Source of the DNA: Burkholderiaceae bacterium | GTDB lineage: Bacteria; Pseudomonadota; Gammaproteobacteria; Burkholderiales; Burkholderiaceae_C | Direction of reading: 5' to 3' | Length of the DNA: 64,000 nt | Assembly (NCBI GenBank): GCA_040080605.1 | Contig: JBEBIB010000002.1 | Coordinates: forward strand, 123,124 to 187,123 | Part shown: positions 32,920 to 38,365 of the stretch, in pieces | How the letters are laid out: each line of letters begins with the position of its first letter | Position numbering within the stretch: position 1 is the stretch's first letter | The notes under the pieces: generated by a model | The model's database searches: none | What the model saw: only the letters and a program-made list of their open reading frames with translations | Told to the model about the DNA's origin: nothing | Position numbers and translations under genes: made by a program

Positions 32920-33207
32920 TCAGCGCCGGTCGGTGTGGCTCGAGATCGCGCGGCGCAGCCAGCCACCGAGCGGGCGCAAGGAACCGAACAACGAGTCGGG
33001 GACGAGCGAGTCACGCTTGGAGATCATGCCGCGGGCGTCGAGCATCTCGATGAACTGGCGCACTTCCTGGCGGCGAATGCCGCTCACGCCCACCAGTTGC
33101 GTCAACGACATGTGCCGGTGCGACATGTTGCTCAGCATGCGGCGAAACGCAGTGCGGTCAAACGGAGCATTGAGCTCCGGCCAAGCGGCGAGGCGGTATT
33201 CCTTCAT
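32920..33207 (-). CDS. Hypothetical 95-aa protein, possible winged-HTH
   Basis: GGAG RBS; segment MSLTQLVGVSGIRRQEVRQFIEMLDARGMI has HTH-like amphipathic pattern. Confidence 0.65.
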   Translation of the reverse strand: MKEYRLAAWPELNAPFDRTAFRRMLSNMSHRHMSLTQLVGVSGIRRQEVRQFIEMLDARGMISKRDSLVPDSLFGSLRPLGGWLRRAISSHTDRR

Positions 33208-33363: not shown

Positions 33364-33735
33364 TCAGGAAGGTTTGCTCAACGCACGCTGAACCTCGCTC
33401 TGCCACGGCAGCGCATGCACCAACTGGTGCAGGTGAACAGTGACCTGCACGTGGCTCAAGGCTTCGCCATGGGCATCGAGCAGGCGAAGGTTGGTGACCA
33501 TGCCGAACGGGTCGGCCATGGCGACCACGCCCTGCTGCAGTTCGACCCAGTCCCACGCCACGCCGGCCGAGCGGTCTTCGCTCGCGTCGCCCCACAGGGT
33601 CTGGCCGCTGCACGGCCCGGCCTCGTCGCCAAAAGTCAACACGCGCGTGCCGAGGTGGACAAGATGCAGATGCGAGGCCGAGCTCGCCTGCCACAATACA
33701 GGCGGCCACGCGTACACAATCCATGCAGGTGTCAT
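33364..33735 (-). CDS. RsaM-like (DUF4902-type) quorum-sensing modulator candidate
   Basis: SGQTLW...AGVAWDW...MVTNLRLLDAHG resembles the RsaM-family G-Y-T-E-W...GWDW...SN..L.D pattern as recalled; divergent from luxR; start uncertain. Confidence 0.6.
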   Translation of the reverse strand: MTPAWIVYAWPPVLWQASSASHLHLVHLGTRVLTFGDEAGPCSGQTLWGDASEDRSAGVAWDWVELQQGVVAMADPFGMVTNLRLLDAHGEALSHVQVTVHLHQLVHALPWQSEVQRALSKPS

Positions 33736-33822: not shown

Positions 33823-33842
33823 ATCTGTCAACCCTGTCAGGT
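33823..33842 (-). promoter_or_regulatory. lux-box-like element 2 (between RsaM-like gene and luxR)
   Basis: Minus strand ACCTGACAGGGTTGACAGAT; CTG-N10-CAG core; 14/20 identical to element at 34654. Confidence 0.55.
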
Positions 33843-33902: not shown

Positions 33903-34616
33903 ATGCTTCAGGGTGGGTTCACGGAAGTGCTGGGGAGTCAAAGCCGGGACGAGTTCCGGGATGAGGTCGTGGGCTTCACGAAGAGGCTCGGCTTCGCGAC
34001 CGTCTCGGCCACCGTCGTCATCGACCACCTGCTCGGCGAGGCCGAGTTCATCACCGTCGACAACACGCCGCAGGCCTACCGCGACGCTTTCCAGAACCGC
34101 GACAACTGGCGCCTCGATCCGGTCATGCAGCACTGCAAGCGCCAGAGCATGCCCATCATCTGGAGCCAGAAGACCTACGTGGCACAGGGCTTGGGCGACA
34201 AGTGGGAAGAGCAGGCCCGCTACGGTTATCGCAACGGCATCGCGCTGGCGCTGCACATGCCCGAAGGCCGGCATTTCTTCCTCGGTGTCGACCGCGACCA
34301 GCCGGTGCCGATGCACGCCGGCGAGCTGACGCGCGTGGTCGCCGACCTGCAGCTCTTCGCCGTGCACGCCCAGGACGCCGCCTTGCGCATCCTTGCGCCC
34401 GGTGGCTCCGAGCCGGGCAACCCGTCGCTCACGCCGCGCGAGCTCGAAACCCTGCGCTGGACGATGGAAGGGCGCACCGCGCGCGAAGTCGGCGAAGTGC
34501 TGGGCATCACCGAGCGTACGGCCGCGCTGCACGTCAACAACGCGACCCACAAGCTGGGCTGCGTCAACAAGCACCAGGCGGTGCTCAAGGCCCTGCGCCT
34601 CGGCTTGATTCGCTGA
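33903..34616 (+). CDS. LuxR-family regulator with autoinducer-binding domain (LuxR solo)
   Basis: N-terminal Autoind_bind pattern (DNTP..Y...F........DPVMQHC....PIIW...G) and C-terminal LTPRELETLRW..EG....EVGEVLGITERTAALHVNNATHKLG. Confidence 0.92.
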   Translation: MLQGGFTEVLGSQSRDEFRDEVVGFTKRLGFATVSATVVIDHLLGEAEFITVDNTPQAYRDAFQNRDNWRLDPVMQHCKRQSMPIIWSQKTYVAQGLGDKWEEQARYGYRNGIALALHMPEGRHFFLGVDRDQPVPMHAGELTRVVADLQLFAVHAQDAALRILAPGGSEPGNPSLTPRELETLRWTMEGRTAREVGEVLGITERTAALHVNNATHKLGCVNKHQAVLKALRLGLIR

Positions 34617-34653: not shown

Positions 34654-34673
34654 CCCTGTAAGACTTGACAGTT
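34654..34673 (+). promoter_or_regulatory. lux/cep-box-like operator upstream of peptide gene
   Basis: CCCTGTAAGACTTGACAGTT; CTG-N10-CAG core; 13/20 to V. fischeri lux box ACCTGTAGGATCGTACAGGT. Confidence 0.7.
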
Positions 34674-34746
34674 ACGCAAAAGCTCCACTCCTGTTTGAAT
34701 GGCCGCAGTGCACGGATGGCGTGTACCCCACCTTCAGGAGCAGAGC

Positions 34747-34938
34747 ATGCAACAACGTCAAATCACCGCCTCCCAATTCGCCACCCAGTCCGTTGCCGGC
34801 TCGCAGGCATCGACCAAGAGCGCCCCGATCGCACTCGACGCGGCCACGCTGAAGCTGGTCGCCGGTGGCGTGCAGACGGCCGGCCCGAACGGTGGCTGGT
34901 CCAGCGCCGGTGTCGAAGGCCCGAACGGCGGCTGGTAA
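34747..34938 (+). CDS. Double-glycine-leader peptide precursor (63 aa) with repeated GPNGGW core
   Basis: AGGAG RBS 6 nt before ATG; leader end LDAATLKLVAGG (hydrophobic at -12/-7/-4); core VQTAGPNGGWSSAGVEGPNGGW; directly upstream of HlyD and C39 ABC exporter. Confidence 0.85.
   Translation: MQQRQITASQFATQSVAGSQASTKSAPIALDAATLKLVAGGVQTAGPNGGWSSAGVEGPNGGW
34882..34935 (+). repeat. 18-bp direct repeat (17/18 identical, 36-nt period) encoding GPNGGW twice
   Basis: GGCCCGAACGGTGGCTGG (34882-34899) and GGCCCGAACGGCGGCTGG (34918-34935). Confidence 0.95.
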
Positions 34939-34953: not shown

Positions 34954-36213
34954 GTGGCCAGCCTGTTCCGCCCCGAAGCCCTGGAAAACCGCCAGCGCGA
35001 CTGGCTGGGCAGCATTCAGCTGATCCGGCCGATTTCACTTGGCGTATTGACCCTTTTTGTGGTCGCGACCGCCGTGGCCGTCGCTTCCTATTTGGTGCTC
35101 GGCGAATACACCCGCAAGGCCCGTGTCAGCGGCTATCTCGTTCCCGACCAGGGTGTGATCCGCCTGATGTCGCCCCAGGCGGCAACGCTGGTGGAGTCGC
35201 ACGCCGTCGAAGGTGCGTCGGTGCGCCGCGGCGACGTGCTGTTCGTCCTGTCGGTCGGCCAGTCCACGCTCAGCGGCGACACACAGGCCGCCGTCAAATC
35301 GAGCCTGGCGCTGCGCGAGCAGAGCCTGCAAGGGGCGGCTCGCCAGCGCGGTGCGCTCGAGCAGACCCAGCTCGGCGCGCTCGACCGCCAGATCGAAGAC
35401 ATGCGGCGCGAGCTCGGCTCCATGGCCGCCGAGGCCGATCTGCAACGCGAGCGGCTCACGCTGGCCCAGCAAGCCCAGGCGCGGCTGGAATCATTGCGCA
35501 ACGACAACTTCGTGTCGTCGGCGCAGGTGCAGACGAAAGCCGAGGAAGTTCTCGGTCTGAAAGCGCAGATGCAGGCGCTGGAGCGCCAACGCTCGGCACA
35601 CTTGCGCGAAATCACCGCGCTGCAGGCGCAACGCCGCGAGTTGCCGATGCGCGTGCAGGCGCAACAAGGCGAGATCGACCGCGATCTGGCGGCGCTGGCC
35701 CAGCAGGCCGCCGAAAACGAGGCCCGCCAGCGCATCGTGGTGCGCGCGCCGCAAGACGGTGTGCTCACCGGCGTGCTCGCCCAGGTCGGCCAGACTGTCA
35801 CGCCGACGGTTGCGATGGCCAGCTTACTTCCCGCCAACGCACGCCTGCAGGCGCAGCTCTTCGCACCGTCGAGCGCGGTCGGCTTCGTCCGCCCGAACCA
35901 GCCGGTGCAGTTGCGCTACCAGGCTTTCCCGTACCAGAAGTTCGGCCACCAGACCGGTGCGGTGGCGCTGGTGTCGCGTTCACCGCTGCAGGCCACCGAG
36001 CTCGCAGGCTTGCCGATGCAGGCCGCTGCGAACGCGGCGAGCGAACCGCTGTACCGCATCACCGTCACGCTCGACCAGCAAAGCGTGGCTGCGTACGGCC
36101 AGGCCCAGGCGCTGGTGCCCGGCATGCAGCTCGAAGCCGATGTGCTGCTCGACCGGCGCCGCCTGATCGAGTGGCTGTTCGAGCCGGTGCTCGGCATCGC
36201 CGGTCGGGTGTAG
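34954..36213 (+). CDS. HlyD-family membrane fusion protein (CvaA/MchE-like)
   Basis: SLFRPEAL N-terminus, one TM, EYTRKARVSGYLVP, coiled coil, VRAPQDG, YQAFPYQKFG, PGMQLEADV; GTG start. Confidence 0.93.
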   Translation: MASLFRPEALENRQRDWLGSIQLIRPISLGVLTLFVVATAVAVASYLVLGEYTRKARVSGYLVPDQGVIRLMSPQAATLVESHAVEGASVRRGDVLFVLSVGQSTLSGDTQAAVKSSLALREQSLQGAARQRGALEQTQLGALDRQIEDMRRELGSMAAEADLQRERLTLAQQAQARLESLRNDNFVSSAQVQTKAEEVLGLKAQMQALERQRSAHLREITALQAQRRELPMRVQAQQGEIDRDLAALAQQAAENEARQRIVVRAPQDGVLTGVLAQVGQTVTPTVAMASLLPANARLQAQLFAPSSAVGFVRPNQPVQLRYQAFPYQKFGHQTGAVALVSRSPLQATELAGLPMQAAANAASEPLYRITVTLDQQSVAAYGQAQALVPGMQLEADVLLDRRRLIEWLFEPVLGIAGRV

Positions 36214-36217
36214 GCGC

Positions 36218-38365
36218 TTGGCTTCCGTGCTCGACGGTCTGCGCTTGGGTCTGACGGGCCGGCGGCTGCCGATGATCTTGCAGACCGAGGCCGCCGAGTG
36301 CGGCCTGGCCTGCCTGGCGATGGTGGCCTCGCACCACGGCTTTCGCAGTGACCTGCCGACATTGCGCCAGCGCTTTTCGGTCTCGCTCAAAGGCGCGACC
36401 ATGGCCGACCTGGTGCGCCTGGCCGGTCACATGCGGCTGAACGCACGCGCGCTGCGGGCCGAGATGGAGCACCTGCCCGAACTGGCGCTGCCTTGCATCC
36501 TGCACTGGGACCTGAACCACTTCGTCGTGCTGAAGGAAGTCCGCCGCGGCGTCGCCGTGATCCACGACCCGGCGCGCGGCGTGCGCAGCCTGCCGCGGGC
36601 CGAGCTGTCGAAACACTTCACCGGCATCGTGCTCGAGCTGGCGCCGCAGGCCGAGTTCGAACCGCAGACCGCGCGCCAGAACGTCTCGTTGCGCCAGTTG
36701 CTCGGCCGCGTGACCGGCCTGAAGCGCTCGCTGCTGCAGATCTTCACGCTGGCGGTGGCGCTCGAAGCGTTCACGCTGCTGTCGCCGTTTTTCCTGCAGT
36801 GGGTCGTCGACAGCGTGCTGCTCAGCGCCGACCGCGACCTGCTCATCACGCTCGGGGTCGGCTTCGCCTTGCTGGTGCTGATCCAGGTCGGCGCCAGCGC
36901 GATCCGCTCGTGGGCCGTGTTGCACCTGTCGGCCACGCTGAACCTGCAGTGGCTCTCGAACGTGTTCGCGCACCTGATGCGCTTGCCGGTCTCGTGGTTC
37001 GAGAAGCGCCACACCGGCGACGTGATGTCGCGCTTCGGCGCGGTGCAGAAGATCCAGCAGACGCTGACCACGAGTTTCGTCGAGTCGGTGCTAGACGGCG
37101 TGCTCGTCGTCGTCACGCTGGCAATGATGTTCATCTACAGCGGCACGCTGACGGCCATCGCCTGCGCCAGCGTCGCGGCTTATGCGCTGTTGCGCTGGGC
37201 CTTTTTCAGGCCGCTGCGCGAAGCGACCGAAGAGTCGATCATCTTCGAGGCCAAACGCTCCAGCCATTTCCTCGAATCGCTGCGCGGCGTGCAGTCGATC
37301 AAGCTCTTCAACCGCCAGGAAGACCGCCAAGCGCGTTTCATGAACCTCGTGGTCGACGCGATGAACGCCAACATCGCCACGCGCAAGCTCGACCTGATGT
37401 TCAGCGTCTTGCACAAGCTGGTGTTCGGGCTGGAGCGCATCGCGATTGTCTGGGTCGGCGCCTTGCTGGTGATGGACCACATCTTCTCGGTCGGCATGCT
37501 GTTCGCGTTCATCGCCTACAAGGAACAGTTCGCGCAACGTGTGAGTGCGCTGATCGACAAGGTGGTCGAGCTCAAGATGCTCAAGCTGCAGGGCGAGCGT
37601 CTGGCCGACATCGTGCTCACGCCGCCCGAACCGCAGGCCGAGTTGGCGCCGCCGCTTCCGGCAGGGCGCGTGAGCCTGGAACTGCGCAATGTGAGCTTCG
37701 GTTATTCCGAGGCCGAGCCCGAGGTGCTGCGGCACCTGAACCTCGTCATCGAACCGGGCGAGTCGGTGGCCATCGTCGGCCCGTCGGGTTGTGGCAAGAC
37801 GACGCTGCTCAAGCTGATGCTGGGCGTGCACACGCCTCAGACCGGCGAGATTCGCGTCGGTGGCCTGGCCTTGCGCCAGCTCGGCCTGCGTGCCTGGCGC
37901 GACATGATCGGCACCGTGATGCAGGACGACCAGCTCTTCGCCGGCTCGATCGCCGACAACATCAGCTTCTTCGACCCCGAGGCCGACCCGGCGTGGATCA
38001 CGCAGTGCGCGCGCATCGCCGCCGTGGCCGACGAGATCGGCGCGATGCCGATGGGCTTTCACACGCTGATCGGCGACATGGGTGCCAGCATTTCCGGCGG
38101 CCAGAAGCAGCGCATCCTGCTGGCGCGGGCGCTTTACAAAAGGCCGAAGCTGCTGTTCCTCGACGAAGCGACCAGCGCGCTCGACGTCGAGCGGGAACGC
38201 GAAGTGAACCAGGCCATTCGCCAGCTCGACCTCACGCGCATCATCGTCGCGCACCGGCCCGAGACCATCGCGTCGGCAAACCGCGTGATCGTGCTGCAGG
38301 ACGGCAAGATTTCGCAGGACCTGCGCAGCGTGCCCGGCGGCGGGGGCAGCACGCACGCCCGCTGA
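36218..38365 (+). CDS. Peptidase-containing ABC transporter (C39 + TM + ATPase; CvaB/MchF-like)
   Basis: [16 protein letters not shown] (catalytic Cys), [11 protein letters not shown] (His), IHDP (Asp), [25 protein letters not shown]; TTG start. Confidence 0.95.

Follow-up and report, generated by a model that had tools for sequence, protein, structure and literature searches.

Receptors of the LuxR family are the textbook sensors of acyl-homoserine lactones, and quorum sensing by peptides is regarded as a trait of Gram-positive bacteria. Here we describe a locus in a stretch of 64,000 nucleotides from a Burkholderiaceae bacterium (contig JBEBIB010000002.1 of assembly GCA_040080605.1; the whole stretch is called the window, and all positions are counted from its first letter). 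In this locus a small gene at 34747-34938 on the plus strand encodes a double-glycine (GG) leader precursor that carries the hexapeptide GPNGGW twice, and it stands between the gene of a LuxR solo and those of a peptide exporter. By comparison of sequences we identified a conserved precursor gene, a five-gene module around it, a six-residue unit under selection, the diversification of this unit, an operator, and co-variation between the peptide and the receptor pocket. These data point to a signal rather than a toxin, and we think it rather likely that the precursor is the source of a multi-copy hexapeptide autoinducer for the neighbouring LuxR solo. This would be an undescribed kind of Gram-negative quorum sensing. 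New here are the delimitation of the hexapeptide, the test for selection on its copies, and the replicated co-variation of peptide and pocket.

Several described systems share parts of this architecture. In streptococci, ComC/CSP with ComAB and BlpC with BlpAB combine an unmodified signal peptide with a GG leader, cutting and export by a C39-type ATP-binding cassette (ABC) transporter, autoinduction and pherotypes matched to receptors, a combination that we propose here from the genes. The receptor of these systems is a membrane histidine kinase, while our candidate is a cytoplasmic LuxR-family regulator. Their signals have 17-27 residues and are encoded in a single copy, whereas the unit described here has six residues and comes in 1-5 copies, and their Gram-positive hosts have neither the HlyD adaptor nor the RsaM-like gene that belong to the module here. 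The RRNPP systems of Firmicutes and phages (Rap-Phr, PlcR-PapR, AimR-AimP) offer a likeness in an unmodified C-terminal peptide of 5-8 residues, presumed re-import, a cytoplasmic regulator and strong co-diversification of signal and receptor. This is a likeness in logic and not membership, as RRNPP receptors have a TPR fold and the sole regulator in the module here is of the LuxR type. RRNPP peptides are secreted via Sec with extracellular proteases, in contrast to the C39-ABC exporter found here, and we know of no RRNPP system in Proteobacteria. In some phr genes the mature peptide is encoded several times, and duplication has been suggested as an aid to divergence.

LuxR solos that sense endogenous signals other than acyl-homoserine lactones have been described, and in a review on LuxR solos PluR (photopyrones), PauR (dialkylresorcinols) and the plant-associated OryR and PipR are characterised by the lack of a LuxI, by substitutions at TraR W57/Y61 and by adjacent signal-production genes (PMC10134790). 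The ligands of the PluR/PauR type are small metabolites made by enzymes, whereas the neighbouring "synthase" is here a ribosomal peptide gene with an exporter; the searched passages of this 2023 review mention neither a ribosomal-peptide class nor an exporter partner. A divergent rsaM beside a LuxR solo is listed in another review as rsaM-luxR "type 6" in Pelomonas, Kinneretia, Albitalea, Xenophilus and Thauera (PMC10710839). These appear to be the same divergent RsaM-like/LuxR-solo pair in related genera, and the searched passages of this review contain no mention of adjacent genes for a peptide, HlyD or a peptidase-containing ABC transporter (PCAT), or of a signal for the type 6 solos.

The export genes resemble those of the class II microcins (ColV with CvaAB) and of RaxX with RaxAB, in which a Gram-negative GG-leader peptide is likewise accompanied by an HlyD adaptor and a C39-ABC exporter. 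Class II microcins, however, have cores of tens of residues and an immunity gene, while the unit here has six residues and no conserved immunity gene, and RaxX requires the sulfotransferase RaxST, whereas the module here comes without a modifying enzyme. Tandem identical hexapeptides together with a co-evolving LuxR occur in neither of them. Tandem identical cores with variable spacers and copy number are also found in the multi-core precursors of cyanobactins (PatE), of fungal ustiloxin-type peptides and of the yeast alpha-factor. These rely on dedicated proteases, macrocyclases or Kex2 spacer sites, none of which is evident here. We found no description of a peptide-reading LuxR system in the literature searched.

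A precursor built from hexapeptide units

The precursor gene has the following features:

34736-34740, plus strand: ribosome-binding site AGGAG, seven bases 5' of the precursor ATG
34747-34938, plus strand: precursor open reading frame, ATG at 34747, stop codon at 34936-34938, 63 amino acids
34747-34869, plus strand: double-glycine leader of 41 amino acids (...PIALDAATLKLVAGG), ending in LVAGG
34870-34938, plus strand: core VQTA-GPNGGW-SSAGVE-GPNGGW and the stop codon
34882-34899, plus strand: hexapeptide unit, copy 1, GPNGGW
34918-34935, plus strand: hexapeptide unit, copy 2, GPNGGW, abutting the stop codon

The product consists of the 41-residue leader MQQRQITASQFATQSVAGSQASTKSAPIALDAATLKLVAGG and the 22-residue core VQTAGPNGGWSSAGVEGPNGGW. 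A preliminary description of this DNA had already proposed this division, with GPNGGW twice in the core, the second copy running up to the stop codon, no Cys and almost no charge, and the reading of the open frame together with repeat detection bears it out; the single charged residue is a Glu. A direct repeat of 19 nt with 95% identity covers the two copies, and the sole mismatch within the 18 coding bases is a synonymous GGT/GGC exchange. The leader follows the pattern L(-12)DAATL(-7)KLV(-4)AGG and thus has the hydrophobic residues at about -4, -7 and -12 that are expected of GG leaders. Searches of the precursor against Pfam and NCBIfam matched no family.

A protein search returned 50 homologous clusters at 90% identity (57-75 amino acids), all of them from metagenomes or metagenome-assembled genomes of Burkholderiales. 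LVAGG, including the glycines at -2 and -1, and both G-P-x-G-G-W units are invariant in these clusters, V-4, L-7 and L-12 are conserved, and Pro is followed by N, H, K or Y, the choice being uniform among the copies of one precursor apart from one exception. A wider comparison included 58 genome-derived loci and about 60 loci from an independent metagenome scan. Here the leader ends in GG, or rarely GA (in the genome loci as well), and is followed by a core of 6-47 residues that ends in P-x-x-x-W and holds 1-5 copies of the unit. After Pro we found N, K, R, H, Y, A, V, T or G, and at the next position G, K, N, D, S, T, A, R or Q. A single copy is found in about half of the genome loci, as in GG/LPKATW, GG/TEGPKKYW and GG/VVTGPHKGW, where the slash marks the cut; the first of these would leave LPKATW alone after cleavage, and the other single-copy cores have 7-13 residues. 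Two copies are the commonest multi-copy state, but GPNGGW also occurs five times (L067). The first copy often directly follows the Gly-Gly cut and the last one abuts the stop codon. Spacers between copies are absent (SPNSTWSPNSTW, SPNGTWSPNGTW), consist of one residue (SPKGTW-A-SPKGTW in L071) or reach up to about 26 residues, and their sequence is unconstrained.

The boundaries of the unit are best seen when the copies within one precursor are compared. Over 101 copy pairs from 77 multi-copy precursors, identity along x-P-x-x-x-W is 100/100/99/99/99/100%, and it drops to 37% and 15% at the two positions that precede the unit. Between the copies of the 28 multi-copy precursors from genomes we counted 75 synonymous but only 2 non-synonymous codon differences, which indicates that selection keeps the copies identical. 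The same ratio rejects recent duplication or gene conversion as the cause of this identity; the differences include a Ser encoded by AGT in one copy and TCC in the other (L082). The unit is exactly a hexapeptide, and these results argue for release of one and the same peptide from every copy. We are highly confident that the gene product is an exported precursor with the repeated hexapeptide as its functional unit.

In the light of this comparison, several early expectations can be judged. The choice between one 22-mer and two Trp-terminated peptides falls in favour of two peptides, in view of a six-residue unit that occurs in 1-5 copies with free spacers, and the contrast drawn with ColV-type microcins holds. 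The similar (A)G-V junctions noted before the two copies are present in this precursor but are not general, as the low identity upstream of the unit shows. Homologues next to PCATs were expected to keep a PxGGW motif; they do so in the relaxed form P-x3-W, and the strict motif is not general. The Asn-Gly pair, which had been singled out as prone to isoAsp or aspartimide formation, is not conserved. Only Pro and Trp are invariant, so that neither Asn-Gly deamidation nor a fixed Pro-Asn-Gly turn can be the key feature.

The unit diversifies over short distances. In one genus the precursor is present in 15 of 35 genomes with at least 10 different hexapeptides, among them SPNGTW, GPNGNW, GPNDNW, GPHDNW, APRGGW, SPRGTW and GPHGGW in four copies, while the neighbouring proteins are 76-96% identical. 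The hexapeptide thus appears to switch among close relatives in a pherotype-like manner. Precursors with non-identical copies were observed in L030, in P0021 of L132/L133, and in L153, L160, L184, L190/L191 and L215; the mixed pairs are GPNGTW/GPNDSW, GPNGGW/GPKGGW, LPVAGW/APVGGW, TPNDTW/TPNDSW, GPGGSW/GPGNSW and LPHGGW/SPNNSW. The mixed GPNGGW/GPKGGW precursor stands with a LuxR carrying Lys at position 100 on one contig and with a LuxR carrying Met there on another. Such mixed-copy precursors look like intermediates of a specificity switch.

Co-variation of the hexapeptide with the LuxR ligand pocket

The precursor is accompanied by four further genes of the module:

33364-33735, minus strand: RsaM-like gene, conserved part of 123 amino acids from MTPAWIVYAW..., open frame extending to 33867
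33903-34616, plus strand: LuxR solo, 237 amino acids, with autoinducer-binding (PF03472, 1e-23) and GerE helix-turn-helix (PF00196, 1.5e-12) domains
34954-36213, plus strand: HlyD-family membrane-fusion (adaptor) protein, 419 amino acids (Pfam HlyD_3; NCBIfam type_I_hlyD, 3.8e-34)
36218-38365, plus strand: PCAT, 715 amino acids, with C39 peptidase (PF03412, 9e-37), ABC membrane domain (ABC_membrane, 7e-40) and ATPase (ABC_tran, 3e-31)

The LuxR protein is encoded by the only gene with an Autoind_bind domain in its genome, and a search of this 100% complete genome for LuxI (PF00765) gave no match. Across the family, the same search did find LuxI, in 39 of 401 genomes and in 5 of the 60 genomes with the module, never adjacent to it. 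The best PDB matches of the receptor are RhlR, QscR and LasR. In the alignment with LasR, Y56 is replaced by T, W60 by Y and Y64 by F, while D73, P74 and W88 are kept; in TraR numbering the same sites read Y53 to T, W57 to Y and Y61 to F, with D70, P71, W85 and G113 kept. The protein has the two-domain build and the lux box of canonical acyl-homoserine lactone receptors, but lacks their invariant ligand-site set and a cognate LuxI. As judged from this alignment, it is a solo with a non-canonical pocket.

In a discovery set of 50 genome loci, each of the module's proteins was set against the hexapeptide. Peptide distance correlates best with the ligand-binding domain of LuxR (Mantel r=0.386, with kinship not fully corrected). 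When the transporter is controlled for in a partial Mantel test the correlation with this domain stays at 0.31 (p=0.0003), whereas the transporter, C39, HlyD, the RsaM-like protein and the DNA-binding domain of LuxR all fall to about zero when the ligand-binding domain is controlled for. Linkage or hitch-hiking is an unlikely cause of the co-variation, because the DNA-binding domain, although encoded closer to the peptide gene than the ligand-binding domain and located between the two, shows no partial correlation, and because HlyD, whose gene abuts the peptide gene, correlates much less. By mutual information the top LuxR columns are 114, 100, 69, 68, 52, 126, 59 and 63. An unbiased test of all columns against four peptide positions, based on 25 non-overlapping nearest-neighbour pairs, placed 10 ligand-binding-domain columns among the top 25, and the three highest ranks all went to this domain. 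The fraction of tests with p<0.01 was 3.2% for this domain, compared with 0.7-1.0% for HlyD, RsaM, the DNA-binding domain and the ABC part, and its columns stand out against all others (Mann-Whitney p=0.0004). The co-varying columns 51, 63, 69, 100, 114 and 126 correspond to LasR I52, Y64, A70, F101, T115 and A127, all of which are ligand-contact residues (PMC9654057).

The relations between individual residues make physical sense. LuxR69 is Gly in all 15 loci with Thr, Asn or Tyr before Trp; in the remaining loci it is Trp or another larger residue, and Gly in only 1 of 34. Where Lys or Arg follows Pro, LuxR100 is Leu, Met, Ile, Val or Cys (26 of 26 loci), and 20 of the other 24 loci have Lys, Arg, His or Gln there. 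Both relations find support in phylogenetically independent pairs, taken from a tree based on HlyD and the transporter: a non-Gly residue before Trp goes with Gly at LuxR69 in 10-11 pairs versus 0-1 (p about 0.002), and a basic residue after Pro goes with a non-basic LuxR100 in 10 versus 0 (p about 0.002). Switches were seen even between loci with nearly identical transporters (L074/L082 and L095/L101). For precursors of the GPKGGW type a non-basic residue 100 is predicted, and K100M was found in both of two metagenome lineages whose LuxR is 95% identical to that of the window.

A scan of metagenomes with a LuxR profile provided replication. It gave 80 further loci out of more than 458 relatives, and 57 homogeneous receptor-precursor pairs were used, with these results:

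Residue before Trp not Gly, LuxR 69 = Gly: 28 of 36 pairs with the peptide feature, 1 of 21 without (Fisher p 4.5e-8)
Asn or His after Pro, LuxR 100 = Lys: 28 of 31 with, 0 of 26 without (Fisher p 3e-13)
First residue Gly, LuxR 126 = Phe: 33 of 34 with, 4 of 23 without (Fisher p 2.5e-10)
First residue Ser or Ala, LuxR 114 = Cys: 8 of 12 with, 0 of 45 without (Fisher p 3e-7)

The window fits all four rules, with G-P-N-G-G-W opposite F126, A114, K100 and W69. Of the four variable residues of the unit, three have side chains that LuxR tracks, which argues that these residues survive in the ligand.

The proposed circuit and competing explanations

The following sequence elements face the RsaM-like gene or precede the precursor:

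33823-33842, minus strand: second CTG-N10-CAG box, CCTGACAGGGTTGACAG, facing the RsaM-like gene; TTGACAG is common to both boxes
34654-34673, plus strand: lux-type operator CCCTGTAAGACTTGACAGTT, 20-bp inverted repeat, CTG-N10-CAG
34691-34700, plus strand: extended -10-like element CTGnTnnAAT, consensus over 52 loci, at fixed spacing to the operator
34708-34726, plus strand: hairpin GTGCACG-GATGG-CGTGTAC in the 5' untranslated region, just 3' of the inferred transcription start

The operator is present in 58 of 58 loci, in 52 as an exact CTG-N10-CAG and in six with a single deviation (consensus cCTGTAAGAgtTGACAGTt), and lies 85-101 nt 5' of the precursor ATG, apart from one locus with 121 nt in which a later in-frame start codon was picked by the script. 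Relative to the inferred transcription start its centre would be at about -42 to -44, as in lux, las and tra boxes; a canonical sigma-70 promoter was not found in the region. The peptide-exporter operon stands behind the receptor's putative operator, so that it occupies the position of luxI in acyl-homoserine lactone circuits. This site is one of two perfect matches to the operator core CTGTAAGAnnTGACAG in the genome. The other lies outside the window (G000 contig C51:96606-96621, minus strand), where neither a recognisable downstream gene nor a matching -10 element was seen. A hairpin is predicted at the same position in most loci (L027-L126) with different stems, for instance TGCGTGC/GCACGCT, CACCGCC/GGCGGTG and TTGCACGCG/CGCGTGCAA, and this suggests a conserved structure in the 5' untranslated region.

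From these elements we propose the following mechanism. The C39 domain of the adjacent ABC transporter would cut the leader after Gly-Gly, and the core would exit the cell via PCAT/HlyD and an outer-membrane channel; both export and GG cleavage are strongly suggested by the protein family. We further infer a cut after Trp, N-terminal trimming, re-import, binding and activation. The 22-residue core would be cut after the first Trp and the N-termini trimmed until trimming halts at the X-Pro bond. X-Pro bonds are resistant to most aminopeptidases, and the left boundary of the unit, one residue before Pro, may be what such trimming leaves. Each precursor molecule would yield two identical G-P-N-G-G-W hexapeptides. 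The hexapeptide, possibly with a modification that preserves its side chains, would re-enter cells and bind the ligand pocket of the neighbouring LuxR, and LuxR would activate the precursor-exporter operon from the lux-type box at about -43, forming an autoinduction loop with the peptide gene in the place of luxI. A damping role in this loop is probable for the divergent RsaM-like gene. Tandem copies would raise the signal yield per transcript, and in heterogeneous precursors one copy could change without loss of the signal for the old receptor, which the second copy would continue to supply; new pherotypes may arise in this way. We lean slightly towards the broader interpretation that this is the first ribosomal-peptide autoinducer system acting on a LuxR-family receptor, in which an x-P-x-x-x-W gene replaces luxI, the hexapeptide sits in the former acyl-homoserine lactone pocket, and pherotypes evolve via heterogeneous precursors.

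A number of points weigh against this proposal. To our knowledge no LuxR-family protein binds a ribosomal peptide, and with about 586 Da the hexapeptide is larger than an acyl-homoserine lactone. The module encodes neither a protease that cuts after Trp nor an importer. Residues follow the last Trp in L029 (+K), L102 (+GQR) and L105 (+KDGGS), and in L090, L100 and L108 one unit is followed by a long Ala/Thr-rich tail with no second unit; the simple model accounts for neither group. On the statistical side, the column pairs and trait definitions were chosen after inspection of the discovery set, the rule linking Asn or His to Lys100 was refined on the replication set, and neither the Fisher nor the Mantel tests account for relatedness. 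When the metagenome set is tested with the tree taken into account, power is low (p 0.016-1); all directions agree, and only the pair of first residue and column 126 is significant (7.1 vs 0 independent pairs, p=0.016). The pocket positions were mapped by sequence alignment, in which the LasR number is the number of this LuxR plus one.

Among the alternatives, the one that survives best is a secreted effector, either a microcin-like antagonist or a peptide that acts on other organisms, with LuxR regulating it through another ligand such as acyl-homoserine lactones of neighbours or a metabolite. Class II microcins and exported peptides of the RaxX type share the layout of GG-leader peptide, HlyD and PCAT, rapid diversification of cores is also seen in toxin-target arms races, and the retention of D70, P71, W85 and G113 (TraR numbering) in LuxR would suit this explanation as well. 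We nevertheless consider it improbable. It gives no reason why the LuxR pocket should track peptide residues, which was seen in two data sets, or why the peptide gene stands behind a lux box in the usual place of luxI. The functional unit comprises merely six uncharged or singly charged residues, and no immunity-like gene in or next to the module is conserved across the two chromosomal contexts described below.

We regard it as more doubtful still that the uncut core, here the 22-mer, is the active form and that its repeats cooperate, for example if one peptide spans both ligand-binding domains of a LuxR dimer or engages some other bivalent receptor. LuxR-type regulators work as dimers, two copies are the commonest multi-copy state, and the module encodes no Trp-specific protease. 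However, about half of the genome loci are single-copy and others have 3-5 copies, spacers of 0 to about 26 residues with unconstrained sequence fit a fixed bivalent geometry poorly, and near-identical receptors occur in close relatives with 2 and 3 copies. Equally doubtful is a unit that serves as substrate for enzymes encoded elsewhere (head-to-tail cyclisation or Trp modification), the product being the ligand or unrelated to LuxR: multi-core precursors are common among ribosomally synthesised and post-translationally modified peptides, and modified peptides such as ComX and those of prolyl-oligopeptidase-type macrocyclisation typically have handles of this kind, an invariant Pro and a C-terminal Trp, but no modifying or excising enzyme accompanies the conserved module in either chromosomal context, and the side chains tracked by LuxR would have to persist in the ligand.

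If the hexapeptide is indeed read by the neighbouring receptor, a LuxR solo that senses a gene-encoded hexapeptide would link Gram-positive peptide signalling with LuxR quorum sensing and show how an acyl-homoserine lactone pocket can be re-tooled. The widespread orphan LuxR/RsaM pairs of Burkholderiales would gain a ligand. A gene-encoded signal and its receptor, connected by simple rules (positions 69, 100, 114 and 126 versus the variable residues), would form a tractable model for the evolution of specificity and possibly a supply of orthogonal, programmable channels for cell-cell communication. The multi-copy precursors, including the rare heterogeneous ones, would serve as a testbed for the long-standing question of joint change of signal and receptor without a non-functional state.

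The module and its genomic setting

The five genes (RsaM-like, LuxR solo, precursor, HlyD and C39-ABC exporter) keep their order in about 56 loci, and the RsaM-like gene is divergent from luxR in 55 of 58. In one Burkholderiales family (GTDB), 60 of 401 genomes gave a match in the module search, and 36 of its 201 genera are represented among them. A sample of 392 genomes that covered about 60 further families of the order contained no true member; the only matches outside the family, in G448, were unrelated GG-leader peptides. Near relatives carry the module between nasT/p95 on one side and tsaD on the other, whereas in most other genera it is flanked by an ABC-2 transporter operon and mnmG. 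The second (mnmG) site is present in the window's own genome without the module. The flanking genes are housekeeping genes that differ between the two contexts, and the occurrence in two distinct contexts indicates that the five genes are inherited and moved together as a unit. A secreted S33 "TAP-like" hydrolase and the ABC-2 transporter, which lie beside the module in about 30 loci, were considered as the missing protease or importer and rejected, as in this genome they stand beside mnmG on contig C59 without the module; the hydrolase is regarded as a conserved but unrelated neighbour. A weak second match in G027 (L026, PPSDPTW) was treated as spurious; it lies inside an open frame of 261 amino acids with no module genes nearby.

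The RsaM-like protein matches Pfam DUF4902 (PF16245) at E=0.0012-0.0024 (18-19 bits), below the curated cut-off of 25. Twelve of 20 relatives match DUF4902 at E<=0.01, the best at 1.5e-5. As a single sequence it gave no match against the PDB, while a profile of its relatives gave 4O2H (BCAM1869, BcRsaM) as the sole match, with a weak E=0.12. The C39 domain of the PCAT matches the double-glycine protease domain 6MPZ at 7e-24 and retains the QxxxxECG and NHFVVL motifs with the catalytic Cys and His. Its columns (PCAT residues 1-150, window positions 36218-36667) are mildly enriched in associations with the unit's first residue, with 2.3% of tests at p<0.01 compared with about 0.8% for the remaining transporter. 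Such an enrichment would be in keeping with a peptidase that is sensitive to the residue behind its cut site.

Between nasT and the RsaM-like gene lies an open reading frame of 95 amino acids (32920-33207, minus strand) with weak winged-helix-like matches. It is conserved (53-87% identity) only at modules sited between nasT and tsaD, and elsewhere it is not part of the five-gene module. Decayed modules were observed in L037 (G018:C21), where the LuxR is 92% identical, the precursor has a mutated leader, the transporter is present as fragments only and HlyD is missing, and in L033 (G033:C14), where HlyD is reduced to fragments; these could be receiver-only or non-producer genotypes. Two to five tandem LuxR paralogues, 51-54% identical to the LuxR of the window, lie beside the module in L077 (G132), L084 (G178), L080 (G190) and L119 (G334), and they may be extra receptors for other hexapeptides, which would allow eavesdropping.

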